A stretch of 64,000 nucleotides of DNA from the NCBI GenBank assembly GCA_964016885.1, contig OZ024743.1, positions 355,570,001-355,634,000 on the forward strand, in the 5' to 3' direction. This DNA comes from Eledone cirrhosa (lineage: Eukaryota). The position numbers and the translations under genes were made by a program. Shown in pieces: positions 857 to 41,967 of this stretch (positions are counted from its first letter, which is position 1; every line of letters starts with the position of its first letter). The notes beneath the pieces were generated by a model, which searched no databases, had not been told where the DNA came from, and saw only the letters and a list, made by a program, of their open reading frames with translations.

Positions 857-3800
857 ATGTCTAATGATAAAATCTCATACCGGATCGGCCGTCACCCGGT
901 TAAAAAAGGGCCACGTCCCTCAGAGAGGAACCAGACTGGGGTCGAAAAATCAGCCAATGGTTCAAACCTTCCCATCACTTCGGAGCTGGAGACCTCCCAT
1001 AACCGGAATACTCCTACTGTTGGCCCTCCATGCTCACCACCAAGAAATCCAAAGAAAAAGAGAGAAAAATTGTCAAGGGAAGATAATAAGGAATTCCTTG
1101 AGGCTTTCTACACTGCCATGTACTACCCATTAAATACATCGAATACAGAACAGACATATATCAACTGGTAAAAGAAACATCCCGAAAACAGAAGCTATAT
1201 TGACAGTAACAAACTAGCCAATATACGAAGAAATATTGTAAGAAAAAAGTTACTAACTGATATAGAAATTGATCAGATCAAGCTATTAGCACAAAGTCAG
1301 GGAAGGGAAAATGAAACATGTGTCAGTGAAAACGAGGTGAATTGTAACACTTCGAATCCCAGGGTTGGGGCGGAATCACTGGCAACAGAACAAATTAAGG
1401 AAAGGATCGAAAAAGTGGAGGGAGTGCATGCTCAAGATGAAACTCCAAATGAAAATAATGAGATCGTAAATGATAAAGAAATGAATGAGAATGAACTTGC
1501 CAACTTGAAGGATGAAATTATGATCGAATGGATGAAAATGAAAGAATCTGACATAGGGCAACGAGACACCCTCCCTAAGATCCAAAACTCCAAACAGAAC
1601 CAAAAGATAATACACAAGACTATCATAATTCTCAAAAACATTATCATCACAAACAAACGAAACATTACTGATTTAAATCATCTCTATTATGCATCGGCTA
1701 AAGTCACCACTCACTTATGTGGAGTGAAGATGAAAAAACAAAGGAATTCCCACAAGAAATCTACTTGGCAAGAGAACATCAATCGCCAAATAAACCTTCT
1801 CCGATCTGACATAGAAATTTTAACAAACTATAAAGTAGGTGAACATGTTAAACAAACTAAACTTAGAAAATTGAAAAGAAAGTACAGTATAAAATCAACA
1901 AGTGACATAGACATGCTGATAGAAATAATCAAGCAAAAAGTGTCGGCCAAAGCTGCTCGTATAAGGCGTTTTGAAAAACGATCTAGATTCTATAAGGACA
2001 ATAATATGTTCAAAAACAACCAAAGAAACTTCTACAGAAAAATTGGTAAGTCAACAATAACTTCTAAATCAATACCACCCAAGGAGGAAGTGCAAGAATT
2101 CTGGGAAAAGATCTGGGCCGAAGAAAAAGTTCATAACATACATGCCCCATGGATAGACAGACAAATGAAAGATACAGATCACCTTGAGGAACAAATATGG
2201 GAAAATATAACAGTTGAACAGTTGCGCTTGGCTCTAAGAAAAACCAGCAAATGGAAATCGCCAGGAAAAGACAAAATACAAAATGTTTGGATAAATGCCT
2301 TCACAGAGTCTCATGAGCTGTTAGCCCAACTTTACAATGAAATAGTTAAGGAGCCAGAAAAGATACCATCATGGCTAGTTAACGGCATTACATTCCTGCT
2401 TCTGAAGAATGATGAGACAAACAATCCCAAAAATTACAGACCGATAACTTGCTTGACCACAATGTATAAAATGTTAACATCAGTCCTAACTGAATACACA
2501 TATGACCACCTGATAACAAATGACCTATTTCCCATTGAGCAGAAAAGGTGTAAACGAGGCTCATATGGCTGTAAGGATCAGCGTTTGGTTAACAAAATGA
2601 TACTGGAAGATTGTCATAATAGACACAAAAATCTATCGATTGCTTGGATAGATTATAAAAAAGCATTCGATAGTTTGCCACACAGTTGGATTGAAAAATG
2701 TTTAGAGATTTTCAAAATATCCCCCGTTGTCAGGAGATTTTTGTCATTCAGTATGAAGACATGGAAAACGACACTCCTTTTGAATAGTGAAACAAAATCA
2801 CTGGAAGCTGGAGAAGTTAATATTAATTGTGGAATTTTTCAGGGTGACTCTTTATCACCGCTTTTATTCTGCATCGCACTTATACCATTAAGTAAAATGC
2901 TCAATGAAACAAAACATGGATATAAAGTCTATGACAAAACCATTAATCACCTGTTCTACATGGATGACCTGAAACTATTTGCAAAAAATGATGAACAATT
3001 GCAAGGGCTATTATCCACTGTGCAGCAGTTCAGTGATGACATTAAAATGGAGTTTGGACTAGATAAATGCGACAAAGCAACGTTCACCAGAGGAAAGCTG
3101 CTGAAGAGTTCAGACATTAATCTTGATCGGGGGAACGTGATAAAAGAACTTGATCAAGAAAAAACTTACAAATATCTAGGTGTTTGTGAAGGAGACGGAA
3201 TCAAGCACTCGACAATGAGGGAAAGGATAAGGAAGGAATGTTACCGCAGAGTAAGAGCAATCTTAAGAACGGAATTGAATGCAAGGAATAGGATCGATGC
3301 CATAAAGACGCTTGCCATACCAGTAGTAACCTACAGTTACAATGTCATCAACTGGTCAAGCACAGAGATCCGTAGGCTCGATACAAAAATTCGAAAATTC
3401 TTAACCATGCACAGAATGCATCACCCTAAGGCAGATATAGATAGAATATATCTCCCTAGGAAAGAAGGAGGACGTGGGTTAATCCAGTTAGACATTGCGT
3501 TGAAAACTGCAACAATTGGATTATCTACATATCTAAGGGAATCACATGATTGGATGATCAAACTCGTTTTGAAACACGAAAGCATCAAAAGATCATATTC
3601 CATTACAAAAGATGCACAAAGATACAGTAATGGACTACAAATTTCAGAAGTCCCATTTACTGCTGAAATGTAAAACACATAAAAAGCAAAGCAGGTAAAA
3701 GTAACTGCAAAGAAAGAACTGCTACAGAAACTGGCTAAGAAATGGCAAGAAAAGCCTCTGTATGGAAAATACCCAGAGCGAGCTAACAATCCTGATGTTG

Positions 3801-4681: not shown

Positions 4682-4683
<2 letters not shown>

Positions 4684-4931
4684 TTTCTTTATTAACCACA
4701 AGGGTTTACATAAAGTAGACATTAAGGACAGTGCAGGACAATGCAGGACGGTACAAATGGGCATTTCTGCGTGTAAAAAACAAAAACAGAGGATGTAACA
4801 AAAAATAACAATGAAAAATTCCCCAATAGGGGGGAGACTTCGGAGGGACATTTGTGGAGAAAGCCCAGTAAAAAGCCACAATGACCCTGACCACCAAGGC
4901 AAGTGCCCTCTCCCAGTTTTCCACCTTTAAT

Positions 4932-7900
4932 TTACAGATATATGCTCAGAGTAGGCACATTCACTCGGGCCATTCTTGCTTCTCTCACCCATTTTTCAAC
5001 AAAATGCTGGGAAGAGAGCACTTCCCTCTCTACTCTGATTTTCCTTTTCAAATGAAATTTGAAAAAGTCAATCAGAGCATCACCGAAGAGGTAAGTGCTC
5101 GTCTTCAGCCCGTTCGAACGTGTCCACCATACTATCTCTTTCGCCATGGCCACCAGACAGATAAAAACTGCCTGCCCTTCGCGGCTAAAGGAGGAGGGCG
5201 GGGCAATCCTCACGATGGACTCAGATGATAGCCGGATCCGTACTAAACGCGACAGCAGGTGTTCGACATAAACCCACAAGTCAGCAGTTTTCGGACACTG
5301 GACGAGTGCGTGCAGGACGGTTTCGTCACCCTGCGCGCATCTCGGACATTCCCGGCTGACGGCACCTCCATGCCTGTAGAGTTTATCCCGAACTGGCAAG
5401 GCTCCTCGGTAGCACTGCCAGGCCAGAGATTTCTGGAAGTTGTCCATTGGCCCTGGCCCGAAAGTTCTTCCGAAGAGATTGGCTAGTTGATTTTCGTCGA
5501 CGCCTAGAGTTTCCCCAAGTACGTTGTCGCTCTTCCCCTCCACTAATCCTCTATAGAACGCCGAGGTAGAGTTTCCACCGATCACATTGCCCGATTGGGC
5601 GAGGGCTGTGAGCGCCTGAAGACATTCCAGTCTCCAGGCGCTCCCTCTCGGTCTTCGCTTGACCCAGGACTGCAGCTCCGTCAAGGAAACGAGCTGGGGA
5701 AATACGTGTCTAGCAAACGGCGACCACACCTGATCACCGTCGAGGAAGAGGTGGAGATGTCGTAGCCTGAGCGCGTGCCTGCGCATCATCAGCCACGGCA
5801 TGCCCAGCCCTCCACGTAGCGGGTGTTGACAACAGATGGACCGCCTGACCATCGGAGCACGTCCCTTCCACAAAAAGCGAAAGAGCAAACGCTCCAGCGC
5901 AGTCAGGCGAGGCTTAGGACAGGGTACGACGGTCAGGCGGTAGCAGATGACAGACGCGATGTACGCGTTAGCCACCTCCGCTCGACCTTTCAGGGATAGC
6001 TTTCTCTCCGCCCATTTCTGGGTGAGAGAAGCCACCCTGCTCGTCACCTCGTCCCAGTTTTTGTCCGTCTGGAGGTCCGGACCGAACCAGACCCCTAGCA
6101 ATTTAACCGGTCCGTCCGTTCAGCGTCCGACGACGCTGTTGGACGGCATGGACCTGCCTCTCCAGGTGCCGAGCTGCAGGCCCACTGACTTTTCCTGGTT
6201 GATCATTGCTCCTGTCACCGCTTCGTATTCTCTTAGTGTAGTGCCGATCGCCTCGATGTGTTTGGCGTTCGACACCACTACGGTGACATCGTCCGCATAT
6301 GCTGACACGGATCTTCCGCATCCTAGTTCGCGCGGGACTCCCCTCAACGTCTCCAGTTTGTGCAGTAATGGCTCGAGAGTCAATACGTACAAGAGGGACG
6401 AGAGGGGACATCATTGGCGGACCGAGCGCATGATGTTGAACGGTTCCGACAGGTGACCGTTCACTCTCACCACAGAGCAGATGTCGCTGTGCATGGCAGC
6501 GATCCAGCCTCTGAAGACGGGCCCAAAGCCAGCCGCCCTCAGGACTGCCGCTAGGTAACGATGGTCGACCCTATCGAAAGATTTCGACTGATCTAAATTG
6601 ATCAAGGACCCACCCGTGCCAGGTTCCTTAGCTACCCTCTCTATGATGTATCGCATGAGGTGGAGGTTGTCGTGGATGGATCTGTCGGGAATGGCGCATG
6701 TCTGCGCCTCTCCCACCAGACCACCAACGACAAGCGCCAACCTCTTTGCTAGCACCTTGGCCAAAATCTTGAACTTTGTGTTTAGCAGAGTTATGGGCCG
6801 GAAATTATCTATGTTATCCCCCTTGTTCGGATTCTTTCTCAGCAGTGCCACCGCTCCTCGGCTCACAGAACTGGGAATTCTCCCGTTCTGTTGCCAGTTG
6901 CAGTAGACGTCCGCCAAGAGGCCTCCGAACAAGTCTGGCATCTGTACGTAAAGTTCATAGGGCAGACCATCCAAACCAGGCGATTTACCCCTTGTGCAGC
7001 CAGTCATTGCCTCCCTTACTTCAGCGGCTGTTATCGGCTTTTCGCAACACTTCGCCTCAGTGGCCGAGAGCCGCGGCAGTCCGTCGAGGTAGACACTAAA
7101 GTCCATCCCTCTACCCGGCCCACCGCTGCCCCCGAACAGCTGAGCGAAGTGTCGCTGAAAAGCTTCACACATTTTCCCGGGATCGAGTAGCATGCGCCCG
7201 TCGTGGTCCACCAAAGACCGGATCGTGGCTTTGTTGCCACGACGCGCCTCCGCCACTCGGGCCCATTGAACGGCTTTCGTCCCCTCGTGTCTGAGAGCAC
7301 GCACCCTTGCTCTGACAACGCAGCCTTCGTGCTTTGCATTGAAGAATTGGTCACGGGCCAATTTCGCCGCAAGCACGTCGGTCGCAATGCCTTTGCTAAG
7401 CGCCTCGTCTAATTTTCTAACTAGTTCTCCCTCTGCTCTATTTTTCTCTGTTGCTAAAGTCTTACTAAACCTAATCGATTCTATTCCAATCGCTCTTTTC
7501 AGAGCAAACCACCACTTGTTGTTGACGATGGCCCCTGTCAACGCCCGCTTAACTAGTTCGCTAATCCGGTCTCTGTAGGCCTTGCGCGCTGGTAAGGACG
7601 CGTTTAGCTTCCAGTAGCCGGGTCCTCGTCTATGAAGCCTATCTAAGTCAAGCACACAGATCACGAATTTGTGGTCCATGTAGCTGACTATCTTGAATTG
7701 TGGACAGCCTATGCTAGACCTATCTATTTCCCTACAAAATACTCTATCTAGATATGATCTGGATGACCCTATGCGATTTGTCCAAGTCCACATTGGCACA
7801 TTCGGGAAATCCAATCGGTCCCTGTCAGACAGTTCAAAACGCCTGAGCAGGTTGGTGAGGCTCTTGCACCCTCCACCCCTATCCGCTAATCCCACACAGT

Positions 7901-8351
7901 CCCAGCGTGCATCTAAGATCCCGTTCCAGTCGCCCACTAACACTAAAGAGCGGGACGTTCCAAGAAAGGTCTCCAGACGCCGGAAGAAATCAGGCCGCCC
8001 TGCTCCTGTCGGGGCATAGACGGCCACTAGCCTGAAAGCTTGCCGGTCTCCGCTGGTCACGTCCAGCACCACCAGCTTACCCTCTGGGTCCAGGAAGATG
8101 GCCCGTATGGCCAGATCCAAACCTCTCCGAAAAAGCACAGCAACTCCTCCCCCCGATCCAGGACGGCTGGGAGATGCGTACACATCGTAGCCGCCGAAGA
8201 TCGGTGCGAAGGCCCGTGCTTCGGAGATTCTGGTCTCGCTGATGGCCACTACATCTATGTTTAGTGACCTGAGGTCGTTGAGCAGGTGACCCTGCTTCCA
8301 TGACGACCCCAAGCCACGCGCATTTATGCTGCCTATTCTGAGTGAGGTCAT
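4932..8351 (-). pseudogene. Tx1-a ORF2 (APE endonuclease + reverse transcriptase), frameshifted
   Basis: APE motifs SINARGL, ISET, VYAP, GDWN, SYLDRV, MDHK; RT motifs FRPITLLN, LDQSKSFDRV, YADD; breaks near 6411 and 6103-6120. Confidence 0.9.
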
Positions 8352-8386
8352 ATTTAAAATAGAGTGGAAAAGATGGGAAAGACCAC

Positions 8387-10480
8387 TTACCGTACTTTTG
8401 GTAGAGGAGGGATGGTTTTTACATCCCTTTTCACCTGATCGTCTGGTGAAGGGACCGTTGAATCGTCCCTTCGGCTGGTCGTCGGCTCTTCTAAGAGAAT
8501 GTCTGAGTATACTCTTCGATTGATGGTTCCTCCTAGGTCCCTGAAATCACCAACTGCGTTGGGGAATTTCGTTTTAATATTTGTGTATTGTTTCTGTGCT
8601 ATTTTTAGCAGTCTTATGTTAGTTGGCGTTTTGATTGGTGCTGGTATTATGTAGTCCTGTTGTGAAATGTCTGTGTGTTCAATTATGTAAGTCATTAGTT
8701 TCTTGTTGTGTGTATTTATTGCCGTGCATTTGTTTTTCTGGGGGTGGGGTGTGGTTCTGCTATTTTCTTGTCGTTGTTGCTGGGTGTGTGTGTTTTGTTG
8801 TTGTGTTTGCGATGTTGGTGCTTGTGGTGGTGGTGTTGAAGGTGTTGTTGGCGGTGGGGTTGTCGCCGGTGGTGATGGTGGTGCTAGTGTGCGTGGTGAT
8901 GGTGTTGGTGGTGTTGCTGCTGTGGGTCTCTTTGCAGTAGACTTTACCCTTTTCTCATTTCTTTCCTCCCTTTTCAAAGGCGACGATGCGCTGCTTCTGC
9001 GTTTGTGCCTTCTTACGACCTTTTGCCATCCCTCTCCCACCTCACACTCCATGTCTGATTCTGTGAGGTCGGGGAGGGGTACCAGCTCCACTCTTTCACT
9101 TGTTGTTGGTGGTGATGTTTGCACTGGAGTCTCTGTTGCCGCTGCATTTGGTATTGCTGTTGTTGTTGTTAATATTTCCACTGCTGCTGCTGTTTTTGAT
9201 TTCCGTGGCGTGGGTATGGGTGCCACGGACCTATCGTTCCTGGTTGCCGCTTGTCCTGTTGCTGGTAGCCGTGGAGCCGGATTCGGAAGGAGGGGGGTTT
9301 TCTCCTTTCTCAGGGTCTTCTCGTTGCAGAAGGCCCTGAGGTGAGTCTTCGATCCACAGCGAAAGCATTTCGGGCGTTTGCCCTCAACACTTATGGGCAG
9401 TTGAGTGCCGTTATCGAAGTCTATCACATCCGGGATAGCTTCGATGCACTCCTGGTTGGTTTGGATTAGCATCTCAATGGAGGTGCCGACCCAATCTTCT
9501 CTTACTTTTTTCTGTACTTGCAGTACAGTTGTTTTGTCCTCGATTCCGACGAGGACAGACGCGGCCAGCCAAGAAGGGGACATTCCGTGGGGGGGGGGGG
9601 CGTGGTTCAGTTTGACCCTCACAATTTTTTGCCCGCAGTAGGAGGGCACCAACACCATTTCCTCGCTCCTTAGGGTCACTACGGATTGGGCCTTTGCCTC
9701 CTGGGGTGTGGAAAAAAGTACGTCTACGGTGGCATATTTTTTGCCTCGGGTGATGTGTGTTTTCCGCTGCCACACAGACCCCAAGGCTTTTTGTATTTGG
9801 GCCTCTGCGGCTCTTTCCACCCTACGGGATTTTGTACTTACTGTACGGTACGTGACCGTACAGTGCTGTTGGGTTTCGAAAAATTTTTCCGCTGCCTTGC
9901 AGATTGCTCGGTGTCCATTCTTTGTCACCATCTTCTTCGCTTCCTCTAATTCCTCATTTGTTATGAGGATTGTTTCCAAGTTTTTCGCAATACCTGCAAA
10001 TGAGATTGGTTTTTCTTTGCTGCTGTTGTTGTCGTCAGAGCTTTTGTTGTTGCTGCAGGTACTACGACTACTGCCTTCGCCGCTGTTGCTGTGGTTGTTG
10101 TTGGTGTTGCTGCTGCTAATGCTGTTGTTGTTTATGCTGCTGGTGATGCTGTTGCGGCTGCTACTGTTGTTTTCATTGTCACTGTTGCTGTTGTTATTAC
10201 GGCTGCTACTGCTATTATTCCTGACGTCAGACGAATGAACTGGGTTTTCGTATTTCCCGCACACCTGTTTCGTCGCTGTCGTCGTCGTCGTGGAGAAACC
10301 TTGCACGCTTTGCACGAGACTTTTCTTTTCTTTCGTCGCTTGCGAAAGAGAAGGGAGGGAGAGAGACACATTTAAAGAAGGGAGGGAGAGAGACAATCTT
10401 CTCTCTGCTGTAGTGATGATTGAGGAAGAAGAAGACGGAATGAGTGGGAGTGACCTATGCAAATTCTTTTTCGTAGCCAT
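8387..10480 (-). CDS. Tx1-a ORF1 (gag-like nucleic-acid-binding protein), open
   Basis: First ATG at 10480; Asn/Ser low-complexity N-terminus, ISFA motif, CCHC knuckle CFRCGSKTHLRAFC, Pro/Thr-rich C-terminal region. Confidence 0.85.
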   Translation of the reverse strand: MATKKNLHRSLPLIPSSSSSIITTAERRLSLSLPSLNVSLSLPSLSQATKEKKSLVQSVQGFSTTTTTATKQVCGKYENPVHSSDVRNNSSSSRNNNSNSDNENNSSSRNSITSSINNNSISSSNTNNNHSNSGEGSSRSTCSNNKSSDDNNSSKEKPISFAGIAKNLETILITNEELEEAKKMVTKNGHRAICKAAEKFFETQQHCTVTYRTVSTKSRRVERAAEAQIQKALGSVWQRKTHITRGKKYATVDVLFSTPQEAKAQSVVTLRSEEMVLVPSYCGQKIVRVKLNHAPPPHGMSPSWLAASVLVGIEDKTTVLQVQKKVREDWVGTSIEMLIQTNQECIEAIPDVIDFDNGTQLPISVEGKRPKCFRCGSKTHLRAFCNEKTLRKEKTPLLPNPAPRLPATGQAATRNDRSVAPIPTPRKSKTAAAVEILTTTTAIPNAAATETPVQTSPPTTSERVELVPLPDLTESDMECEVGEGWQKVVRRHKRRSSASSPLKREERNEKRVKSTAKRPTAATPPTPSPRTLAPPSPPATTPPPTTPSTPPPQAPTSQTQQQNTHTQQQRQENSRTTPHPQKNKCTAINTHNKKLMTYIIEHTDISQQDYIIPAPIKTPTNIRLLKIAQKQYTNIKTKFPNAVGDFRDLGGTINRRVYSDILLEEPTTSRRDDSTVPSPDDQVKRDVKTIPPLPKVR

Positions 10481-10697
10481 GTTGACTTTTTTGTTTAAAA
10501 TAAATATTGGGTACAAAACCCCAATAAGCAGTTATTTAACCCCGAAGGGCCAAATAACGGGCAGAAAGACCCCTCTCACGAGGAGGAGGGTGTTTTTGTC
10601 TACAAGTTGGGTCTAAGTTTTAAACAATTTACAATTGTTAAAGCGTTCAAAATTTACAGTACCTTACAGAGCCGAGCCTCCGTCAACCATAGTATTC

Positions 10698-16068: not shown

Positions 16069-16079
16069 GGGTGAGAGAG

Positions 16080-16113
<34 letters not shown>

Positions 16114-16134
16114 CTAGATAGATAGATAGATATA

Positions 16135-16561
16135 TTTCTTTATTAGCCACAGGGGCACAAAAGAAGGGGACAAATACAAAGGGGGAAGTTTACATACAAT
16201 AAAAACGTGTAAAATGTTATCACAGATGGAATTTAAAAGTTAGTCGATTTTCCCCAATAGAGGGAGACAGTTTATATGGGTAACACATACCCCCGAAAAA
16301 AATGTGCAACCCTCATCTCCAGGAGTACAAAGAGCTTGTACTCCTTTCCTCTCCTCCTCCTTTTCCTCAATCTACAGGCTGATATAGAGAGAAGGCCCAT
16401 TCACTCGGGCCATTCTCGCCACTTTCACCCACCTTTCATAAAACTTGCTGGGGTACAGCACCTCTCTCTCCATCCTGATTCTTCTTCCAAAGTGGTATTT
16501 GAAAAAAAGAATCAGTTGTTGGCCGGAGAGAAAGGTGTCTGACCTCAGCTCTTTCAACCTT
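16135..16561 (-). mobile_element. Tx1 lineage b, short 3' fragment with (TCTA)n tail
   Basis: ORF2 C-terminus FFKYHFGRRIRMEREVL; 3' end GTGGCTAATAAAGAAATA; (GATA)n on both sides. Confidence 0.85.
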
Positions 16562-16599
16562 GATAGATAGATAGATAGATAGATAGATAGGTAGATTTA

Positions 16600-19279
16600 A
16601 AAAATTGATTACCACAAGGGCACAAAAGAAGGGGACGAATACAAATGGGGAGTTTACATACAGGTATATGAAAATAAAACTATTAATAAAATAACAAATA
16701 ACAATTGAAATCCCCAATAGGGGGGAGGCGTTACACAGGGGTTGTACACACCCCGAAAAAATGTACAACCCTCATCTCCAGGAGCACCAAGAGTGAGTAC
16801 TCCCCTCCTCCCTTCCTCCTCCTTTTCCTCAACCTACAGGCTTATATAGAGAGAAGGCCCAACCACTCGGGCCATCTTTGCCACATTCACCCACCTTTTA
16901 TAAAATTTGCTGGGGTACAGCACCTCTCTCTCCATCCTGATTCTTCTTCCAAAATGATATTTGAAAAAAAGAATCAGTTGCTCGCCGGAGAGAAACGTGC
17001 CTGACCGCAGCCCTTTTAACCTCGTCCACCATATAACCGCTTTCACCATAGCCATAACACATAGGAAAATCGCCTCTCCTTCGTTTTTGAAAGGGGGTGG
17101 CGGTTTGATCATGACAATGGACACGGTGGTCAACTGGATTGGTCCCACCCGCGACAAAAGTCGTTCTACATATCCCCACAGGTCGGTAACCCCCGGGCAG
17201 TGTACATTTCGGACAGATCTTTTTCGAAGGGCGCCCGTGTCTGTAGAGCTTGTCTCGAACTGGTAGAGCTCCTCGGTAGTACTGTCAGGCCAGGGACTTT
17301 GGGAAGTTGTCCATCAGTCCCGGGCGGAAGGTCCTACCGAACAGACTGGCCAGTTCGTCCTCCTCTACGCCTAGAGTTTCTCAAAGCTGCGGACCAACCC
17401 TCTGTAGAATGACGAAGTGGAGTCTCCACTGATCGCCGTGTCCGTTTGCCGGAGGACTGTGAGCGCCTGAGCACATTCGATGTGCCAGTCGCTCATTTTC
17501 CTCAGTTTTTGCTTGACCCAGGACTGCAACTCGGTCAGCGAAACGAGTCGTGGGAAGGCTCGCCTCACGATGGGGCCCACACCGGTTGTCCGGTGAGGAA
17601 TACGTGGAGATGCCGCAGCCTGAGCGCGTGTTTGCGCATCGTCAACCACGGCATTCCTAGCCCTCCGTTTGAAGGGTGTTTGCAGCAGATGGATCTTCTC
17701 ACCAAAGGAGCCCGCCTCTTCCAAAGGAATTGGAAGAGCGCGCGCTCCATTTTGGTGAGCGTTTTGGCTGGACAAGGCACGACGATCAAGCGGTAGTAGA
17801 TGACGGACGCTATAAAAGTGTTCGCCACCTCCGCTCGACCTTTCAAGGATAGTTTGCACTCGGCCCACTTCTGGGTGATCGCAAACACCTTGGCCGTCAC
17901 CTCGTTCCAGTTCTTCTCCACCTGGAGGTCCGGACCAAACCAGACCCCGAGCAGCTTTACCGGTCCTTCCGTCCAGCGTCCTACGACGCCATCGGAAGGC
18001 ATCGGTTTGCCTCTCCACGTTCCGAGTTGCAAACCGACGGATTTGTCCCGGTTCAGCTTCGCTCCTGTGCATCTTTCGTATTCCTTCCGTAAAGTGCCGA
18101 CATCCCCGATTTGCGAGATGCTCGACACCATTACTGTCACGTCGTCGGCGTAGACCGACGCCGCTTTTCGCAGTCCCGGTTCCTGAGGGATGCCCTGCAA
18201 TAGCTCTAACCTCCGCAGTAGTGGCTAGAGAGTCAGTACGTACAGAAGGGAGGAGAGAAGGCATCCCTGTCGGATGGATCGCGTGATATGGAACGGCTCC
18301 GAGAGGTAGCCGTTCACCTTGACCCTTGAGCAGATGTTGCTGCTGTGCATTGGAGCAATCCAGCCCCTGAACACCGGTCCGAATCCTGCCGCCTCGAGCA
18401 CCGCATCCAGGTAACGATGGTCACCCCTATCGAAAGCTTTAGACTGATCCAAATTGTTCAGGGCCCCACCGAAGCCGAGTTTACAGCCTACCCTCTCTAT
18501 GATGTATCGCATGAGGTGGAGGTTGTCGTGTATGGACCTGGTCGGGATTGCGCATGTCTGCGCTTCTCCCACCAGGTTTTTGACGACCAGCGCAAGCCTC
18601 TTTCTCAAAACCTCAGCCAAAATCTGTAACTCTGTGTTTAGCAGAGTTATGGATAGGAAGTTGCCTATGTCAACCCCCTTATTCTCGTCCATCCTGACTA
18701 ACGTGACTACGCCCTTGGTCACAGAACTGGGATTCTTCCGTTATGCTGCCAGTTGCAGTAGACTCCTTCCAGGAGACCGGAGAACAAGTCCGCCATTGCT
18801 ACGTAAAATTCGTAGGGTAAACCGTCGAGATCTGGAGATTTGCGTTTGCCGCATTGTCTCAGCGCGTCCCCTATCTCAGCGGCCGAAATCGGCCTTTCGC
18901 AGAACTTCGCCTCGCTGTTCGAGAGTCGCGGCAGGCCGTCGAGGTATGCACCGAAATCCATAGCGTGCCACCCTTCCCGAACAGTTGAGCAAAGTGTCGC
19001 TGAAAGCCCGCGCACATCTGCGTAGGCTCACGTATTACGCGTACGTCTTGGTCCTTCAAAGACCGAATCGTTGATTTGTTGCCATTTTTCGCCTCAGTCC
19101 CTCGGGCCCAGCTAACAGTTTTGGTTCCCTCGTTTCCCAGAGCATGTATTTTTTGCTCCTGACAACGCAGCCTTCATGCTTTGCCTCGAAGAACTGGTCC
19201 AAAGCCGTTCTCGTCGCTAGCACGCTGGCTACGATGCCACTCCTAAGTGCCTCTTCTACTTTATCTACCAGTTCCTTGG
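16600..19279 (-). mobile_element. Tx1 lineage b, 5'-truncated ORF2 copy
   Basis: RT fragments (LDQSKAFDR, SIRQGC, VYADD), many frameshifts; bounded by (GATA)n at 16562-16590 and 19280-19311. Confidence 0.88.
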
Positions 19280-19314
19280 TAGATAAATAGATAGATAGAT
19301 AGATAGATAGATAT

Positions 19315-22300
19315 ATTTCTTTATTAGCCACAGCGGCACAAAAGAAGGGGACAAATACAAAGGAAGAAGTTTACATACAATAAAAACGTGTAAAATACTA
19401 TCACAAATACAATTTAAAAGTTAATCGATTTTCCCTAATAGGGGGAGACATTACATATGAGTAACACATACCCCCGAAAAAAATGTGCAACCCTCATCTC
19501 CAGGAGTACGAAGAGTTTGTACCCCTTTCCTCTTCTCCTCCTTTTCCTCAACCTACAGGCTGATATAGAAGAAGGCCCATTCACTCGAGCCATTCTCGCC
19601 ACTTTCATCCACCTTTCATAAAACTTGCTGAGGTACAGCACATCTCTCTTCATCCTGATTCTTCTTCTAAAGTGGTATTTGAAAAAAAGAATCAGTTGTT
19701 GGCCGGAGAGAAAGGTGTCTGACCTCAGCCCTTTCAACCTTGTCCACCATACAACCTCTTTCGCCATAGGCTATCGCACAAAGGAAAACCGCCTCTCCTT
19801 CGTTTTTGAAGGAGGGTGGCGGTTTGATCATGACAATGGACTTGGTGGTCAAGCGGATTGGTCCCACCCGCGACAATAGTCGTTCTACATAGCCCCACAG
19901 GTCAGTAACGCCCGGGCAGTGTATGAATGCGTGCGCGGCGGTTTCTTCATCTCGCACGTACCTCGGACAGATCTTTTTTGCAGGGTCCCTGCCCGGGCGC
20001 CCATGTCTGTAGGGCTTGTCTCGAACTGGTAGAGCTCCTCGGTAGCGCTGCCAGGCCAGGGACTTTTAGAAGTTGTCCATCGGTCCCGGGCGGAAGGTCC
20101 TACCGAACAGACTGGCCAGGTCGTCTTCCTCTACGCCTAGAGTTTCACCAAGCGAGTCGTCGCTCTTGCTGCGGATCAACCCTCTATAGAATGACGAAGT
20201 GGAGTCTCCACTGAACGCCGGGTCCGACTGCCAGAGGACTGTGAGCGCCTGAGCACATTCGATGTGCCAGTCGCGCATTTTCCTCGGTTTTTGCTTGACC
20301 CAGGACTGCAGCTCGGTCAGCGAGACGAGTCATGGGAAGGCTCGCCCCACGAACGGGGCCCACATCGGTTGTCCGGTGAGGAATACGTAGAGATGCCGCA
20401 GCCTGAGCGCGTGCTTGCGCATCGTCAGCCACGGCATCCCCAACCCTCCGTTGGAAGGGTGTTCGCAGCAGATGGATCTTCTCACCAAAGGAGCCCGCCT
20501 CTTCCAAAGGAGCGTTTTGGCTGGACAAGGCACGACGGTCAAGCGGTAGTAGATGGCGGACGCTATAAAAGTGTTCGCCACCTCCGCTCGACCTTTCAAG
20601 GATAGTTTGCGCTCGGCCCACTTCTGGGTGAGTGCAAACACCTTGACCGTCACCTCGTTCCAGTTCTTCTCCACCTGGAGGTCCGGACCAAACCAGACCC
20701 CGAGCAGCTTTACCAGTCCTTCCGTCCAGCGTCCGACGACGCCATCGGAAGGCATCGGTTTGCCTCTCCACGATCTGAATTGCAAACCATAGGCCGACGC
20801 CGCTTTCCGCAGTCCCGGTTCCAGAAGGATGCCCTGCAATAGCTCCAACTTCCGCAGTAGTGGCTCGAGAGTCAGTAAGTACAGACCGTCGAGACCTGGA
20901 GATTCGCGTTTGCCGCATTGTCTCAGCGCGTCCCCTATCTCAGCGGCTGAAATCGGCTTTTCGCAGAACTTCCCCTCGCTGTCCGAGAGTCGCGGTAGGC
21001 TCTCGAAGTATGGACCGAAATCCATAGCCCCTCCCGGCGCGCCGCCCTGCCCTAACAGTTGAGCAAAGTGTCGCTGAAAGGCCGCACACATCTGCTTCGG
21101 CTCACGTATCACGCGTCCGTCTTGGTCCTTCAAAGACCGAATCGTGGACTTGTTGCCAATTTTTGCCTCCGTCACTCGGGCCGGCTAACAGCTTTGACTC
21201 CCACGTTTCCCAGAGCACGTATTTTGCTTCTGATAACGCAGCCCTCGTGCTTTGCGTCGAAGAACTGGTCCAAGGCCGTTCTCGTTGCTAGCACGCTGGC
21301 TACGATGCCACTTCTAATTGCCTCTTCTACTTTATCTACCAGTTCCTTCTCGGTCCTATTTCTATCTAACGCTAATTCTTTACTAAAAACTAACGAATCT
21401 AATCTAACTGCCCTCTTGAGAGAGTACCACCATCTGTTGTTGACAATGTCCTCTGTCAAGTGCTGTTTAACTAAAGTGCTAATCCGTCTACTGAAGGCTT
21501 TGCATGTCGGTAACGACAAGTTCAGCTTCCAGTAGCCGGGTCCTTCTCTATGGGTTCTATCAAGGTTGACCATGCAGGTCACTAGTTTGTGATCTGAATA
21601 GGAACCATGAACATTTGTGGACAGCATAGCATGTCCCTATCCTTATTTCTAACTAGAACCCTATCTAGGTACGATCTAGATGTTCCGCTGCCATTAGTCC
21701 ACGTCCACAGTGGCACAGTCGGAACATCTAGTCGATATCTATCGGCCAGGTCAAATCGGCCGATTAACTGTTTGAGGATGTTACACCCCTCTTTATCGGG
21801 ACATGCTCCCACATAGTCCCAACGTGCATCTAGGATTCCATTCCAGTCCCCCACTAAAAGCAAGGAGCGGGACGTTCCCAGAAAAGTTTCTAAACGTTTG
21901 AAGAAGTCTGGCCGCGTTGTCCCGGATGGGGCATATACGGCCACCAGCCTGAAGGCTCCACCTTCACTACCGTCAACGTCTAGGACCACCATTCGACCCC
22001 CCGGGTTCAGATGTACCGTCTGTGTTACGAGGCCCAGGTGTTTCCGCAGCAAAACGGCAACCCCCCCCCCCCCCCCGGCTGACAGAGGGATGCGTAGATC
22101 TCAAAGTCATCGAAGATGGGGGCCAGCTGTCGCTCGCTGTGGATCCTGGACTCGCAAATGGTTACTACATTCATACTATGCGACCTGAGGTCGTTTAAGA
22201 GTTTGCCCTGTTTCCAGGGCATCCCCAGGCCGCGTACATTCACACATCCAACTCTTATATTGGCCATGTTGGTTCTGAAAAGTTAAAAGAAGAGAAGAAA

Positions 22301-23080
22301 ACACTCACCTCTTCGTCTCTCGGGAATCAGGCCGCACGGTTTCCATGGGGGTGTTAGAGGAGTTGTCTGGGTGTGTGGTGGTTTCCGGCGGGGTGGGGAC
22401 GAAGATGTTTGGTGGGGTGGGGGAGTCTGGGGTGAGGGTGGGGAAACTTTTTAAAAGGACGCGGTTAATGGGTTTAACACAGGGATTACCCACGTCCTTA
22501 GGAAAGTTTTCCTTTAAAGACTTATAGGTGTCCGTAGGGACTCTAATCGTCTTTAAATTAGGTTTGTCTACACAGTTTGAAAAAGTTTTCCCTTCGGTTT
22601 TCATGGAAGGGTCGTTGGAGATAACCTCCATTAAAGTTTTGTTTTTACTGTTTATGTATGTGTAATGTTCTTGTTGTGTTGCGGTGGTTTTTCTCTGCTG
22701 TTCTTGTGGGAGCTTTCGTTTTGCTGTAGGTGTTTGTGTTTGGAGTGATGTCGTGGTTTTGTTTTCGGGACGGGGGGGGGGGTTGTTTGTAATGTTTGTG
22801 TTGTTTGTGTTGGTGGTTGTATGTTTGTAGTGATGTTTGTTGTTTTTTTGTTCTTGTGGTGTCTTTTCTTCTTTCTTTTCGAACGGGAGAGGCTCTCCCT
22901 CGTCGTCACTTGGTGATGATGTGGGGGCCTCGTCCGTTGTGGTGTCTTTGTTATTTGGAAGGGGTATGTTTTGGGGAGCTGTTGTGTTTGTGGGTGTTTT
23001 TGCAGTGGTTTTAGGGGAGTGGGTTTGGTGGGACTGTGCTTGCAGGTTGGTTTGTTGTTCTTATTTTGGTTATGTTTGCG

Positions 23081-23127
<47 letters not shown>

Positions 23128-24420
23128 TTGTTGTGGTGGTGGTGGTGGTGGTGGTGGTGGTGGTGGTGGTGGTGGTGGTGGTGGTTGTGTTGTTGTTTTG
23201 GGTGTTGGCAGTAGTACCTCTTTTTTTGTAGTTAACTGAGGACCACTGCTTAAACAGTGGTAACATGAAGGCCGCCTACCCTCAACAGAAATGTTTATGT
23301 GTGAAATTCCGTCCAGAGGCATACGTTGGGGTATTTTAGCTATCCGTTCTGGCCTCATTTGGACCAGATCTTCCATGCTTGTACCATTGAATGTGCCTCT
23401 GGAGGATTTTCCCACCGAAATGATGGTGTCTTCGTCGAAATCGATGAAGCCAGTTAAAATCCACCAGACGTTTACATTTGGTGCAATGTTCGAAATGTTT
23501 ATCTTTTGTGTTCTTTTTACCATGTGGGTAAAAATGTGTAAAGGGAGGACACAATCGGCGATACAGAATATTTTTGTGCTGTCAATTGGTCTTTCAACAA
23601 CACCGAAATGCTTCCAAAAAGTTTCCCTTTTTGGATGAAGGCAATATCCTTCATGGAATTCTTCAGAACCAGTTCAATGTCGTTTTGGGATAATTGAACT
23701 GGTTTTTTCGACACATTTGAAACCGTCCTAAAAATTACTGTTTTTAGAACAGTTTCTCTGCGTAACTGTTGAGGAAAAGGGATGCTGAAAGCACCACTCT
23801 CACCAAAAGTTACATACTGTTTTGCATCGCTTAACATTTCCCTAGCATTGGAAATGTCAAGGTATGTGAACAGTTCCGTCTTTTGGACGGTTTGAGCAAA
23901 GGAAATCTTTTCCTTGTTCGTGGAGTTGTTCGTGTTGCTGTTGTTGTTGGTGGTGTTGTTGTTATCATTGTTGCTGTTGTTGTTTTTGTTGTCATTATTG
24001 TTGTTGTTGTTGTTCTGGTTGGTGTTGTTTATATTTTGCATGTTATTGGTGTTCATGTTAGTGTTGATGTTACAATCAACGTCCGACATCGTCTTTTCAA
24101 AACTGACGACATTTTCGATATCTTTCAATGAGGTGGTGAGAGGAGGTGACTGCGAGCTTAACACTCTTACCGCCTCTCCATCACTTCTAGTTATGAACGC
24201 AGCGTTCATGACTGAATGCAAAGTTTGTTTACAATTTTTTCACCGGCGAAACTTTTTCCAAAAGAAAATTTCACCCCAGGGAGGGGTGAAGATGACTTGA
24301 CCCACCGTCTGAAAGTCCAGACGTGGGGTCAAGCTATAAAATAGTAATAAATTTAACAATAAATTTTTGATTTCTTACTTAGAAAATCAACAAAAACTTA
24401 CCAACGAATTGGCACACGTC
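19315..24420 (-). mobile_element. Tx1 lineage b, full-span copy with internal deletions
   Basis: ORF1 pieces 24221-22305 (poly-Asn, ISFAQ, ISVEGRRPSCYHC); ORF2 from 22267 (CVNVRGL, GDWN, SDHK) with most of the RT core deleted near 20880 (GLDGL|YLLTLEP). The 5' end is approximate. Confidence 0.87.
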
Positions 24421-24509
24421 TAAAGTAAATCAGGATAACAGAAAATGGATAAAAGTTCGGGGATTTGGGGGAATAAGGGAAAGATTATGATGTGAATAGA
24501 AGATTTAAG

Positions 24510-32279: not shown

Positions 32280-34075
32280 AATTAAAACAACAAGAAGTAA
32301 TGTCGGCAGATAGAAGCCGGAAGCTCCGAAGAATATGGAGTGTACATACACTAAAGTATTGCAAGATTATGGGTAAAAATATATAATAAAAATAATAAAA
32401 ATATATAATAAAAATTACTAAGGATGTATATAACATTAAGAACCATATTACAAATATAGTCCAAAGCAAAAAAAACCTAGAGCTAAACAAAGGTGGTTAT
32501 ATAGAGCAGGAATTATATATAATACAATGTAATATAATATATTATACCTTTACCAATATTAAAATTACAATAAAAATCAAAAGGTACAATATGCATATGT
32601 ATATATGTACGCACACGTACACACACATACACATACAACAATACACATATCCATCTTCAACTGCACAAATTAAACCTTATTAAGAGTTTGAATATAAAAA
32701 TAAGCATGATAGGAATGAAAATAATAATAATAATAATACTAATACATCTACCCAATATACATGAGGTAATAATATGATATAATTATAAGTAGCACATATA
32801 ATAAATAATAAACAATACAATTATATACTATATAATATAATATAATAGAATAGATAATCTCCGGTTAATTTACACAAACAATATAGATGTCACAATAATA
32901 CTATAATAATAATATACTAACATTTATAATATACAATATACTAACATTTATAATATACAATATATAATGGTACTCAAGTTAACAAATCAATTCATACTGG
33001 GTTACAGAGTAGGTGAGGAAAAATAAATTGTACAATACCCTAAAAATTATGATGGTACAAAAAAATACAAACATCTTACATGATATATAAAGTTTAACAT
33101 ATCATAATGTTACATATAATCAACGGTAAGTAATAAGGATCAATATTACAAATAAAAAATACAATATAATATAATATATTATATAAAATAAATTAACATA
33201 ATATAATATATAATTACTTATAATTACAAGGTTGGTGAACAGATATGCATGTGGGTGAGTGAGTAAGGGCCAGACAGTAAATATAATGCACAGTAGTATT
33301 ACAAATAAAATATAAAATATAAAATATAGAATAAAATAAATAAATAGAATCAACCGGAAATTAAAAAACAAAAACAAACGTATACATTTAGGTCTCACAT
33401 GCAGTTAAGTAAAAACTAAGGAAACAACCCCTGTAAATGACTCGAAAACCCTATTTGGTAAATTAATATTAAAAATATTTACAATATCCAATAAGGCAGT
33501 ATAATATTAGCTATAGTTTAAGTAATTAAAGTTTATAAACGTTAATATTTCGTTACAAATATTTACAAAAAGGAATGAAATTTTTTACTATCATATACAT
33601 AACGATATCTAAAAAACTGACTTAAGCAGAATTAAGGTAGGCTAATAGGCACAGAAATGAAGAAATATATGGAGGATGCATAGGGGCATAAAATCGTAGT
33701 CGATATACTATATTAAATAATAGAAAGGAGCGTAAAAGAGGGGGGTTTAGATATAATCATAGTCAATTTGGAGGGGTTGATAATAAGTTTATGTGCGCAT
33801 GGGGGGGGGGGTATCCAAAGAAGAATCCGAATAAAAATAAAAATAAAAATTAAAATAAAATAAAATAATTAGCGTAAAATATATAATCTTATATATATTC
33901 ATAAGGTGTTAATAGTGAAAATTTAATGCGTAAGAAGATAGATATGGTACAGTAGCCAAAAGATTATGAGAGCTAGAATAAAGAGTCATCAAAAACCAAT
34001 GATAATAATGATGATAATAATAATGTTGGTAAACAAAAGAACCTAAACTAAAAAATAAGTAATGGAATATATCAG

Positions 34076-36083
34076 CTAATGGGTACAATTTGTTCTACTA
34101 GAACGTTTAGGTTTATAATAAAAGTATGAATTAGAAATAGCGTGGGGGCAAGAAGAGAATATCTCAGACTTTCTATTAAGTAAGGATACGCTAGAGAAAA
34201 TTATAGAGTGTGTCTCGAGGATACAGAGATTACAAAACTTAGTATGTGTAGAAAGGTGGTTAGAGCGTGCTACTAAACGCCAGTTAAGGCTAAATGGTAT
34301 ATTAGCTCCGTTAAGATCCCAGATATAATGTGCTAAAGAAGTAGAATTCTTAAACTTAACATGTTTGAAATTAGAGATATGAGAGTTAAACCTAGTCTTA
34401 AAAGTGTTAGATGTAGAGCCTATATAAGTTCTATTAGAGGAATTAGTTATAACGTCGCAAGCATAGACAATGTTCTTAGAAGGGCAGTTACCGTTTAAAG
34501 GGCAGTTAGCACTCACTCTACAATTGCACTTCCGGGTGTTATTGGTTGGCTCAAGTGGTGATGCATTACACGTAGGATTGCTATTAGATAAGGTCTGTTC
34601 TGGTGGTAATGCATTTCCAGATCTGTTCAGACTAGTAGTATGTAGAGAGGAGAATCCATCCCTAATTTTCCTATTCTTAGTGCTAGCTAAATGAGAACTA
34701 ATATTAGGGGTGGTAGAGAATGAAAGTTTAATAACATTTTTATTAAAAATACTATGGTATTTATGAGAAGGGGGGAAATTTTTCTCTAAGATAGAGAAGA
34801 AAGATCTAGGGATATTAGTTGATACTTCCTGATTATATGGCGGGTTAAAATAAGTATTTAATCGCCTTCTATTTTTATTCTTACCGACTCTACCATTATC
34901 AAATATCCCACCATCGAGACTAGGGTTACTACAAGGATTAGTTAAAACCGCATTCATAGAATCAGCCAAAATTTCATTAAGTCTATTACAGTTTCTACCT
35001 CCAGTAGATCTGCTGCTGTCCGGAATCCCATCAAAAGGATTAGGGCCAATGATAGGATCAGTAGGAGCAACATTATTAGAATAAGATCCAGCAAAACCAT
35101 CACCAATGAGTGAGCGCACAGGGGGTTCAACATGTTTCCTAGAGGTATTATATTCACTATTACGAGTCCCGTGGGTTAACTTATGGATGGATTCAGATAC
35201 ACCTATATAATTTTTACGGTTACTATGTTTCCTACTCCCATTCATGGCCATGTTATGTGATATTATGTTATTATTATTAAAAGTAAGCGGAGACTTTCTA
35301 AGGTTACTATTATTATAATGTATTTTACTAGAGTAACCGGAATTTGCTAGGGCATTATTATAGTACTCCGCATGTTCATTAAATGTTCCTACGTCCTTAG
35401 AGAGTGTGGAAATCCTATTAGATACACCCTTAATTATAGAGCTTATCATAGACTTGGGGTGGTTAGAATTGGGACTAACATAAGAAAGTATTTCATTAGG
35501 CTTATGGAAGGGTTTAAAACTATTAGTGACCAAGTCCAAAGTCACATCTAAAAAGTTAACCGCTCTATCATTGCTATCTATCGTGATCGAAAGGTTATAG
35601 CTTTTAAAAAACTTATAAAGCTTCTTCTAATTATGTTCTACATTGTTGGTGCTCGAGTTAATTACAAACAATGCATCATCACGATATAGTCCGCCTATAA
35701 GTTGCGGGAAGGTAGCATATAGTTCATTAAGGAGGAACAACCCAACAAGATCAGTAACCTGGGCCGAATCACTCGAACCCATTGTAACGTCGAAATTATT
35801 GGGCGTGTTTTTACGGGTCCAAAATGTGTCCTCAAATTTAATAATAGTTTTACGGGCTGCTAGTATAAAATCTACCTGTGATCGTGTGAGGCTGGACACT
35901 CTCATGGCCAACATTAAAGCTTTATTGAGGAGGATGGGTGAAATTGATGTGTAGTAGGCATCAATATCGAATTGGATAAACTTATTAGATTCATGTCTAT
36001 TAATCCCAGAGAACCAATCTGTAACTTCCTTAGTGTTCCCCCATAGGTTAAAATTAACCTTATCCCTAACATCTGGTATAATA
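34076..36083 (-). pseudogene. Naiad RT-GIY-YIG ORF, 5'-truncated, one in-frame TAG at 35627
   Basis: QFDIDAYYTSI, DVTMGS, GLYRDD, NFLDVTLDL, YFNPPY, CNCRVSANCPLNGNC, IVYAC..TYIGST..FKTRFNSH. Confidence 0.88.
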
Positions 36084-36111
36084 ACATAATAATAACATAA
36101 TATCACATAAC

Positions 36112-37287
36112 ATGGCCATGAATGGGAGTAGGAAACATAGTAACCGTAAAAATTATATAGGTGTATCTGAATCCATCCATAAGTTAACCCACGGGACTCG
36201 TAATAGTGAATATAATACCTCTAGGAAACATGTTGAACCCCCTGTGCGCTCACTCATTGGTGATGGTTTTGCTGGATCTTATTCTAATAATGTTGCTCCT
36301 ACTGATCCTATCATTGGCCCTAATCCTTTTGATGGGATTCCGGACAGCAGCAGATCTACTGGAGGTAGAAACTGTAATAGACTTAATGAAATTTTGGCTG
36401 ATTCTATGAATGCGGTTTTAACTAATCCTTGTAGTAACCCTAGTCTCGATGGTGGGATATTTGATAATGGTAGAGTCGGTAAGAATAAAAATAGAAGGCG
36501 ATTAAATACTTATTTTAACCCGCCATATAATCAGGAAGTATCAACTAATATCCCTAGATCTTTCTTCTCTATCTTAGAGAAAAATTTCCCCCCTTCTCAT
36601 AAATACCATAGTATTTTTAATAAAAATGTTATTAAACTTTCATTCTCTACCACCCCTAATATTAGTTCTCATTTAGCTAGCACTAAGAATAGGAAAATTA
36701 GGGATGGATTCTCCTCTCTACATACTACTAGTCTGAACAGATCTGGAAATGCATTACCACCAGAACAGACCTTATCTAATAGCAATCCTACGTGTAATGC
36801 ATCACCACTTGAGCCAACCAATAACACCCGGAAGTGCAATTGTAGAGTGAGTGCTAACTGCCCTTTAAACGGTAACTGCCCTTCTAAGAACATTGTCTAT
36901 GCTTGCGACGTTATAACTAATTCCTCTAATAGAACTTATATAGGCTCTACATCTAACACTTTTAAGACTAGGTTTAACTCTCATATCTCTAATTTCAAAC
37001 ATGTTAAGTTTAAGAATTCTACTTCTTTAGCACATTATATCTGGGATCTTAACGGAGCTAATATACCATTTAGCCTTAACTGGCGTTTAGTAGCACGCTC
37101 TAACCACCTTTCTACACATACTAAGTTTTGTAATCTCTGTATCCTCGAGACACACTCTATAATTTTCTCTAGCGTATCCTTACTTAATAGAAAGTCTGAG
37201 ATATTCTCTTCTTGCCCCCACGCTATTTCTAATTCATACTTTTATTATAAACCTAAACGTTCTAGTAGAACAAATTGTACCCATTAG
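36112..37287 (+). CDS. Open ORF in the inverted arm encoding only the linker and GIY-YIG endonuclease (391 aa)
   Basis: Identical to the C-terminal 391 aa of 34076-35545 and starts at a native ATG; expression unknown. Confidence 0.5.
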   Translation: MAMNGSRKHSNRKNYIGVSESIHKLTHGTRNSEYNTSRKHVEPPVRSLIGDGFAGSYSNNVAPTDPIIGPNPFDGIPDSSRSTGGRNCNRLNEILADSMNAVLTNPCSNPSLDGGIFDNGRVGKNKNRRRLNTYFNPPYNQEVSTNIPRSFFSILEKNFPPSHKYHSIFNKNVIKLSFSTTPNISSHLASTKNRKIRDGFSSLHTTSLNRSGNALPPEQTLSNSNPTCNASPLEPTNNTRKCNCRVSANCPLNGNCPSKNIVYACDVITNSSNRTYIGSTSNTFKTRFNSHISNFKHVKFKNSTSLAHYIWDLNGANIPFSLNWRLVARSNHLSTHTKFCNLCILETHSIIFSSVSLLNRKSEIFSSCPHAISNSYFYYKPKRSSRTNCTH

Positions 37288-39110
37288 CTGATATATTCCA
37301 TTACTTATTTTTTAGTTTAGGTTCTTTTGTTTACCAACATTATTATTATCATCATTATTATCATTGGTTTTTGATGACTCTTTATTCTAGCTCTCATAAT
37401 CTTTTGGCTACTGTACCATATCTATCTTCTTACGCATTAAATTTTCACTATTAACACATTATGAATATATATAAGATTATATATTTTACGCTAGTTATTT
37501 TATTTTATTTTTATTTTTATTTTTATTTTTATTTTTATTTTTATTTTTATTTTTATTCCGATTCTTCTTTGGATACCCCCCCCCCCCCCCATGCGCACAT
37601 AAACTTATTATCAACCCCTCCAAATTGACTATGATTATATCTAAACCCCCCTCTTTTACGCTCCTTTCTATTATTTAATATAGTATATCGACTACGATTT
37701 TATGCCCCTATGCATCCTCCATATATTTCTTCATTTCTGTGCCTATTAGCCTACCTTAATTCTGCTTAAGTCAGTTTTTTAGATATCGTTATGTATATGA
37801 TAGTAAAAAATTTCATTCCTTTTTGTAAATATTTGTAACGAAATATTAACGTTTATAAACTTTAATTACTTAAACTATAGCTAATATTATACTGCCTTAT
37901 TGGATATTGTAAATATTTTTAATATTAATTTACCAAATAGGGTTTTCGAGTCATTTACAGGGGTTGTTTCCTTAGTTTTTACTTAACTGCATGTGAGACC
38001 TAAATGTATACGTTTGTTTTTGTTTTTTAATTTCCGGTTGATTCTATTTATTTATTTTATTCTATATTTTATATTTTATATTTTATTTGTAATACTACTG
38101 TGCATTATATTTACTGTCTGGCCCTTACTCACTCATCCACATGCATATCTGTTCACCAACCTTGTAATTATAAGTAATTATATATTATATTATGTTAATT
38201 TATTTTATATAATATATTATATTATATTGTATTTTTTATTTGTAATATTGATCCTTATTACTTACCGTTGATTATATGTAACATTATGATATGTTAAACT
38301 TTATATATCATGTAAGATGTTTGTATTTTTTTGTACCATCATAATTTTTAGGGTATTGTACAATTTATTTTTCCTCACCTACTCTGTAACCCAGTATGAA
38401 TTGATTTGTTAACTTGAGTACCATTATATATTGTATATTATAAATGTTAGTATATTGTATATTATAAATGTTAGTATATTATTATTATAGTATTATTGTG
38501 ACATCTATATTGTTTGTGTAAATTAACCGGAGATTATCTATTCTATTATATTATATTATATAGTATATAATTGTATTGTTTATTATTTATTATATGTGCT
38601 ACTTATAATTATATCATATTATTACCTCATGTATATTGGGTAGATGTATTAGTATTATTATTATTATTATTTTCATTCCTATCATGCTTATTTTTATATT
38701 CAAACTCTTAATAAGGTTTAATTTGTGCAGTTGAAGATGGATATGTGTATTGTTGTATGTGTATGTGTGTGTACGTGTGCGTACATATATACATATGCAT
38801 ATTGTACCTTTTGATTTTTATTGTAATTTTAATATTGGTAAAGGTATAATATATTATATTACATTGTATTATATATAATTCCTGCTCTATATAACCACCT
38901 TTGTTTAGCTCTAGGTTTTTTTGCTTTGGACTATATTTGTAATATGGTTCTTAATGTTATATACATCCTTAGTAATTTTTATTATATATTTTTATTATTT
39001 TTATTATATATTTTTACCCATAATCTTGCAATACTTTAGTGTATGTACACTCCATATTCTTCGGAGCTTCCGGCTTCTATCTGCCGACATTACTTCTTGT
39101 TGTTTTAATT

Positions 39111-41798: not shown

Positions 41799-41967
41799 TT
41801 ATACCCTTTATTATTTCCTTACCTTATAAAATTATGTTTTTTCACAAAAAAGTATTCTGTCTCTTATATATTCCATGTGCCATTACCAACCTCAATTTTC
41901 TCTATAACCTTCGTTTTGTGTAGAAAATTACACTTTTCATATATACTAACCTACGCAAATCCGGAAA

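Follow-up and report, generated by a model that had tools for sequence, protein, structure and literature searches.

Mammalian L1, the LTR elements of the Ty1/copia group and Rous sarcoma virus provide the closest described parallels to the arrangement reported here. Mammalian L1 has two ORFs, a short spacer between them and a conserved donor near its 5' end, as does the present element. It is expressed as an unspliced bicistronic RNA that also gives rise to the spliced products SpORF2 and SpIRE. There, the donor lies in the 5' UTR and is kept within a RUNX3 site, and spliced RNAs have left genomic copies (passages of PMC5860796), whereas none were found by the searches described below. Given that splicing of L1 RNA is already known (PMC2896524 and PMC5860796, both in part), LINE splicing as such is not new.

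In Drosophila copia and Arabidopsis EVD, a conserved donor likewise lies at the end of the structural ORF (gag), and U1 at this donor both directs splicing and represses premature termination (PMC5580714, in part). These are, however, LTR elements with a single gag-pol ORF, a defined acceptor and a demonstrated subgenomic RNA; in the present element, ORF1 carries a stop of its own and any partner acceptor is a candidate. The RNA stability element of Rous sarcoma virus resembles the present case in placing pyrimidine-rich sequence after the stop of the first ORF of a long unspliced RNA (passages of PMC4764554). That element binds PTBP1; the tract found here is only about 35 nt long, follows a donor, and its protein binding is putative.

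Among cephalopods, 13 recently active L1-Tx1 families have been described in Octopus vulgaris (PMC13282606, in part). The main text of that paper mentions neither splicing nor introns, and the string "splic" does not occur in the main text of another octopus transposable element paper or of a survey covering vertebrate Tx1 (PMC7140322). Searches of full-text literature, with supplements, subscription journals and Repbase reports outside their scope, found no conserved donor at an ORF1 stop. This suggests that, within the literature covered, a conserved donor across a LINE ORF1 stop has gone undescribed.

Here, we analyze such a donor in a LINE copy from Eledone cirrhosa, situated in a window of 64,000 nucleotides (contig OZ024743.1, positions 355,570,001 to 355,634,000 of the forward strand).

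Structure and relationships of the element

The features relevant to this study, all on the minus strand of the window, are as follows.

19313 to 24430, minus strand: LINE copy of the L1 group (Tx1-like), subfamily b1, near full-length and dead; the 5' end is approximate and was set against other copies
22305 to 24209, minus strand: ORF1 of the b1 copy, interrupted by frameshifts that leave three open stretches, and without a Pfam family
19553 to 22267, minus strand: ORF2 (AP endonuclease, reverse transcriptase, zinc-binding domain), broken and internally deleted; ATG at 22267, TAG at 19555-19553
19320 to 19325, minus strand: poly(A)-type signal, lying within a few bases of the 3' end of the b1 copy (counted by eye)
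22303 to 22311, minus strand: 5' splice site, GT at 22308, with the ORF1 stop TGA (22307-22305); assigned from sequence, conservation and use in a paralogue
22268 to 22302, minus strand: spacer between the ORFs, with a pyrimidine content of 73-83% depending on lineage; the ATG lies 37-47 nt from the donor
22275 to 22277, minus strand: acceptor-like YAG, found in lineages b and f only and without sign of use
24396 to 24402, minus strand: candidate donor by sequence in the 5' UTR (GT at 24401), some 30 nt downstream of the element's 5' end
4682 to 10697, minus strand: younger family a element of the same design; ORF1 TAA (8389-8387) inside a donor with GT at 8390, ORF2 ATG at 8351 without an AG ahead, 5' donor at 10667 (eye-counted from sequence)

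Frameshifts disrupt both ORFs of the b1 copy, and its 3' end abuts a TATC-type microsatellite. In an intact relative (L214), ORF2 matches PF03372, PF00078 and PF13966 (AP endonuclease, reverse transcriptase and zf-RVT), and the best PDB match of the intact ORF2 is human L1 ORF2p (E 7e-52). ORF1 measures 627-702 codons in young copies. The 3.0-Gb genome holds 27,451 ORF2 ends, and depth in samples X1-X3 drops towards the 5' end of the element, reflecting many 5'-truncated copies. Domain order, a separate upstream ORF1 and 5'-truncated copies all fit an L1-group non-LTR retrotransposon, to which the element is assigned. The nearest named ORF2 relative is from Argonauta hians (66% identical), and a fragment from Octopus sinensis was also recovered. 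A search with the endonuclease returned nine matches, with no named Tx1 protein among those listed, and a search for ORF1 homologues found none.

Copies of lineages b, d/e and g finish in TATC-type repeats and those of a and c in ATT-type repeats (read, not counted). Target specificity for microsatellites is frequent in the Tx1 clade, and the tail repeats seen here fit this trait. Behind the b1 copy (16076-19313, minus strand), two more 5'-truncated copies lie head to tail, each with a TATC-type end and with ORF2 stops at about 16834 and 16372; from this stacking, the clade apparently inserts into its own tails. Copies L224 and L225 and the b1 copy share the same ORF1 end and have apparently different 3' UTRs (19313-19555 in the b1 copy), and families a and c have an ORF1 C-terminal sequence in common that is terminated at different points. 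The differing 3' UTRs and shifted ORF1 ends suggest that recombination may have occurred between families.

The family a element is very young, as seen from the near identity of its 40 best junction matches, and its 5' donor contains the stop of an 8-codon upstream ORF. Elsewhere in the window, two GIY-YIG ORFs with weak Pfam matches lie on opposite strands within 32374-39016 (34076-35626, minus; 36085-37287, plus), bordered by mirrored tandem repeats, and this region is probably an inverted Penelope-like arrangement. Long open frames encoding reverse transcriptase, of 833 and 1,176 codons, occur at 1172-3673 and 41950-45480, both on the plus strand.

A conserved 5' splice site across the ORF1 stop codon

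A sequence-only reading of the b1 copy had placed the ORF1 stop inside a consensus donor, followed by a polypyrimidine tract and an acceptor just ahead of ORF2. All of these features were confirmed (GT at 22308 with the TGA within the donor, pyrimidine-rich spacer, AG ending at 22275, ORF2 ATG at 22267), as was a second donor consensus beginning at 24401. At 109 loci selected by the ORF2 start motif alone, the sequence G/GTRRGT was present 22-52 nt upstream of the ORF2 ATG in 93, as against 32 of 7,194 equally sized control windows. The 16 misses comprised single-base mutants, deletions, one truncation and one short-spacer copy. As separate observations, L103 has lost nearly its whole spacer by imprecise deletion, not splicing, and L096 is 5'-truncated within the spacer.

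Within ORF1 bodies, the donor motif falls over only 2 of 721 stop-like triplets, whereas it spans the ORF1 stop in all 11 lineage representatives (our choice, one per lineage, from 20 long loci; the lineages share ancestry). Donor positions -1, +1, +2, +5 and +6 are invariant in these 11 sequences. Columns of the flanks are identical in at most 10 of the 11 and those of the spacer in at most 9; across eight lineages, no more than 27 of 182 four-fold sites in ORF2 are unchanged, and the ORF2 regions of the representatives are as little as about 65-70% alike. Beneath the motif, the stop varies by lineage (TAA, TGA or TAG) and occupies either of two registers, at intron positions +2 to +4 or +6 to +8. 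Positions +3 and +4 vary between A and G, a variation tolerated by U1 pairing. Given that the lineages are related, the 11 of 11 score represents retention under selection and not repeated origin or 11 independent events. Among the 30 copies closest to the window element, the GT is kept in 29 and the AG in all 30, which reflects no more than the youth of these copies.

Use of the donor in a paralogous copy

One contig of sample X4 (contig 30, depth 115) runs through ORF1, departs at the donor and continues for 31 letters beyond the joint. These letters have a single match in the genome, where a polypyrimidine tract and AG immediately precede them and a sulfotransferase (PF03567) exon begins. 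A same-strand copy of the element lies on C3, 22,483 nt upstream of this exon. Contig 30 shares the alleles of the C3 copy at 14 of 15 places, one of these alleles not occurring in the 30 closest copies, and other ORF1 contigs carry C3-copy alleles at 18 of 19. Given the exact GT-AG join and the allele match, X4 is very probably cDNA. On that basis, the donor at the end of ORF1 is used by the spliceosome in a paralogous copy; the evidence consists of one contig from one sample, the cDNA nature of which is inferred from the exact join. In combination with the conservation data, these results establish that the donor across the ORF1 stop is kept under selection and is splice-competent, without a conserved acceptor.

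The chimeric locus (G000:C3:34980313-35004768; L034, L033, L031) comprises a full-length copy, with ORF1 joined to the host exon. By eye, reading through the join reaches a stop once a single codon has passed, and the frame differs from that of the host exon. Both the proximal AG and the ORF2-end site are intact in the C3 copy and were bypassed in the observed join, and two other X4 contigs run unspliced across the spacer. The junctions foreseen by the sequence-only reading are not among the five joints listed for X4, a sample with 23 indel rows and 36 loose ends besides these joints and represented by contigs, which drop rare forms. Samples X1-X3 behave like DNA, and a 34-nt skip is not among the joints listed for them (17 further joints).

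The predicted 34-nt intron and searches for processed copies

It had further been proposed that removal of 34 nt (22308-22275) fuses ORF1 to ORF2 or, alternatively, that the 5' donor is joined to the acceptor ahead of ORF2 to give a subgenomic ORF2 mRNA. The in-frame join holds on paper in this subfamily, where GT-AG ends and a pyrimidine tract are present, but fails across the clade. An AG ahead of the ORF2 ATG is found in 4 of the 11 representatives and absent in 7. A one-base shift of the donor in b2, c and f would put the fusion out of frame in these lineages, one example being an intact b2 copy with an ORF1 of 643 aa and an ORF2 of 1,145 aa.

No copy precisely lacking the 34-nt piece was found, compared with 472 places bearing the unspliced junction (one mismatch allowed). 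In sister family a, spliced junctions numbered 0 against 1,214 places with an intact donor; two further places with a non-T second base are point mutants and, like 13 from the same search in b2, all retain the spacer. Copies joined from the 5' donor were likewise nil, both in b1 and in a/c, where 2,447 intact 5' donors were counted. Overall, the processed-copy searches in b1, b2, d/e, a and a/c were empty or returned point mutants only; they employed exact or one-mismatch patterns, with older, diverged copies outside their reach. L1 RNA is copied preferentially in cis by the protein that it encodes (PMC4989455, in part), and an RNA producing ORF2p should therefore leave genomic copies, of which spliced ones are absent. 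Taken together, the loss of AG and frame and the absence of intronless copies make it very likely that the 34-nt piece is never cut out.

A putative U1 site on the unspliced RNA

The reading we favor, at a probability of about 0.4, is that the donor at the ORF1 stop acts as an unpaired U1 snRNP site on the unspliced bicistronic RNA, from which ORF2 is translated by reinitiation. U1 bound here and at the 5' donor would favor full-length, stable transcripts, and a PTB-like protein, bound to the pyrimidines that follow the stop, would protect the long ORF2 "tail" against nonsense-mediated decay. Reinitiation at the ATG about 40 nt downstream of the ORF1 stop would then yield the ORF2 product, and splicing to distant host acceptors would be a by-product through which ORF1 becomes an exon of host transcripts. 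Comparable activities are described in portions of three reports: at the EVD donor of Arabidopsis, U1 represses premature termination (PMC5580714), PTBP1 close to a stop codon blocks decay (PMC4764554), and reinitiation across a 63-nt spacer has been proposed for L1 ORF2 (PMC5972666).

A donor fixed amid diverged flanks, its splice competence and the lack of spliced copies count in favor of the unpaired U1 site. Against it, AATAAA is nearly absent from ORF2 of intact copies, where U1 would thus have little to suppress, and such signals occur in ORF1, upstream of the donor. Short pyrimidine-rich spacers without a donor in distant LINEs (L285 and L294) also count against it. Poly(A) signals located 150-350 nt ahead of the donor were considered as a pattern and rejected, being present in several lineages and not in b1/b2; ORF1 is A-rich.

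Candidate acceptors at the end of ORF2

The main rival, somewhat less probable than the unpaired U1 site, follows the copia gag strategy, which would have arisen independently in a non-LTR element. Here, ORF2 would lie within an intron extending from the ORF1 stop to the ORF2 stop or beyond. Joined to an acceptor that coincides with or follows the ORF2 stop, the donor would yield an ORF1-only mRNA and an excess of ORF1p, with the unspliced RNA serving as template and as the source of ORF2p. Drosophila copia does so (cited in passages of PMC5580714), the ORF1 stop is intronic in either register, and the sole observed splice yields an ORF1-only reading.

Of the 27,451 ends, the first-listed 100 include 84 in which a pyrimidine run leads up to TAG as the ORF2 stop. 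In the single lineage with TAA at this position, the 3' UTR contains a strong acceptor-like site (14 of 15 distinct ends pass our cut-off), and the one sister-lineage copy checked is without it. This pairing of TAA with an acceptor is nevertheless one event only, and some site above the cut-off is also found at 12 of 32 TAG ends. Moreover, TAG does not stand out in the synonymous-site control, in which G occurs in seven or more of eight lineages at 17 of 42 two-fold purine sites, and on this control the idea of an ORF2-stop acceptor failed. By eye, the predicted join meets an immediate stop in six of eight lineages, but immediate stops are expected at the purine-rich start of the 3' UTR.

A scan along ORF2 for conserved acceptors revealed only sites explicable by coding sequence, none of which stands out. 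Processed ORF1-only copies were sought in b1/b2, d/e and a, and none were found. The bypassing of the intact ORF2-end site by the expressed C3 copy also weighs against a copia-like intron. Should ORF2 nonetheless lie in an intron, full-length copies would be exon traps in host genes.

Distant LINEs and a motif kept for other reasons

A more doubtful explanation is that the motif is kept not for U1 but as a termination-reinitiation signal or an inherited stop context, splicing being accidental. The motif always overlaps the stop, 37-47 nt ahead of a strong ATG context, and SART1 is known to use reinitiation, which has also been proposed for L1 (PMC5972666, in part). Its distribution outside the clade is also patchy. 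From 80 loci of distant LINEs in metagenomes, 44 with an ORF2 start were examined, 27 of which had an upstream ORF of at least 120 codons; the donor was in register in 1 of these 27, and GTRAG lay within 15 nt in 4. The single case, L287 (near 1150-1190), has the same design, with a stop within the donor and a 36-nt pyrimidine-rich spacer without AG. It is not a sister of the octopod clade in a tree without named references, and its two closest junction-bearing relatives (L282 and L285) are without the donor. The donor over the stop thus appears, from these comparisons, to be clade-wide in this genome and patchy elsewhere, L287 being the one outside case. Two other distant metagenome LINEs, L309 and L334, have a donor in or beside the ORF1 stop.

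A pure stop-codon signal is harder to reconcile with a motif that stays fixed while the reading frame slides beneath it, the stop alternating between TAA, TGA and TAG, or with the recurrence of a similar motif near the 5' end.

The 5' donor and ORF2 expression

Donor-like sites 30-75 nt from the 5' end recur in lineages e, b1, b2, b3, g and a/c. In a/c, this donor contains the stop of an 8-codon upstream ORF, and the sole b1 copy with an altered 5' donor has a one-base deletion. Splicing from this site to an acceptor at the start of ORF2, as the sequence-only reading suggested, is feasible on paper in b and f, where an AG precedes the ATG. By eye, a short first-exon ATG in a/c is in frame with an AG just past the ORF2 ATG, and human L1 yields a spliced ORF2 transcript (passages of PMC2896524). 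We nevertheless consider a subgenomic ORF2 mRNA improbable. An ORF2-coding RNA should be copied in cis, and the lack of joined copies in b1 and a/c therefore speaks against it. Lineages d/e, g and h are without an AG ahead of the ATG, and no such junction is among the five joints listed for X4, in which 5' cover is thin. This route would also leave the donor at the ORF1 stop unexplained.

An ORF1-ORF2 fusion protein produced by removal of the 34 nt, although GT, AG and frame all suit it in b1 and b3 and the closest copies retain both splice sites, is very improbable in view of the AG missing from most representatives, the out-of-frame join in b2 with both ORFs intact, the nil counts of intronless copies in b and family a, and the passage of the expressed C3 transcript over its own intact proximal AG.

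Implications

Control of the ORF1:ORF2 ratio and of bicistronic RNA integrity in two-ORF LINEs is only partly understood, and L1-type RNAs are generally regarded as harmed by splicing. The donor at the ORF1 stop offers a small, mutable handle on U1- or splicing-based control in an active clade with more than 27,000 3' ends. As the sulfotransferase case illustrates, full-length copies bring with them a strong donor through which ORF1 can become spliced into host genes, and this bears on the interpretation of LINE "expression" in cephalopod transcriptomes.
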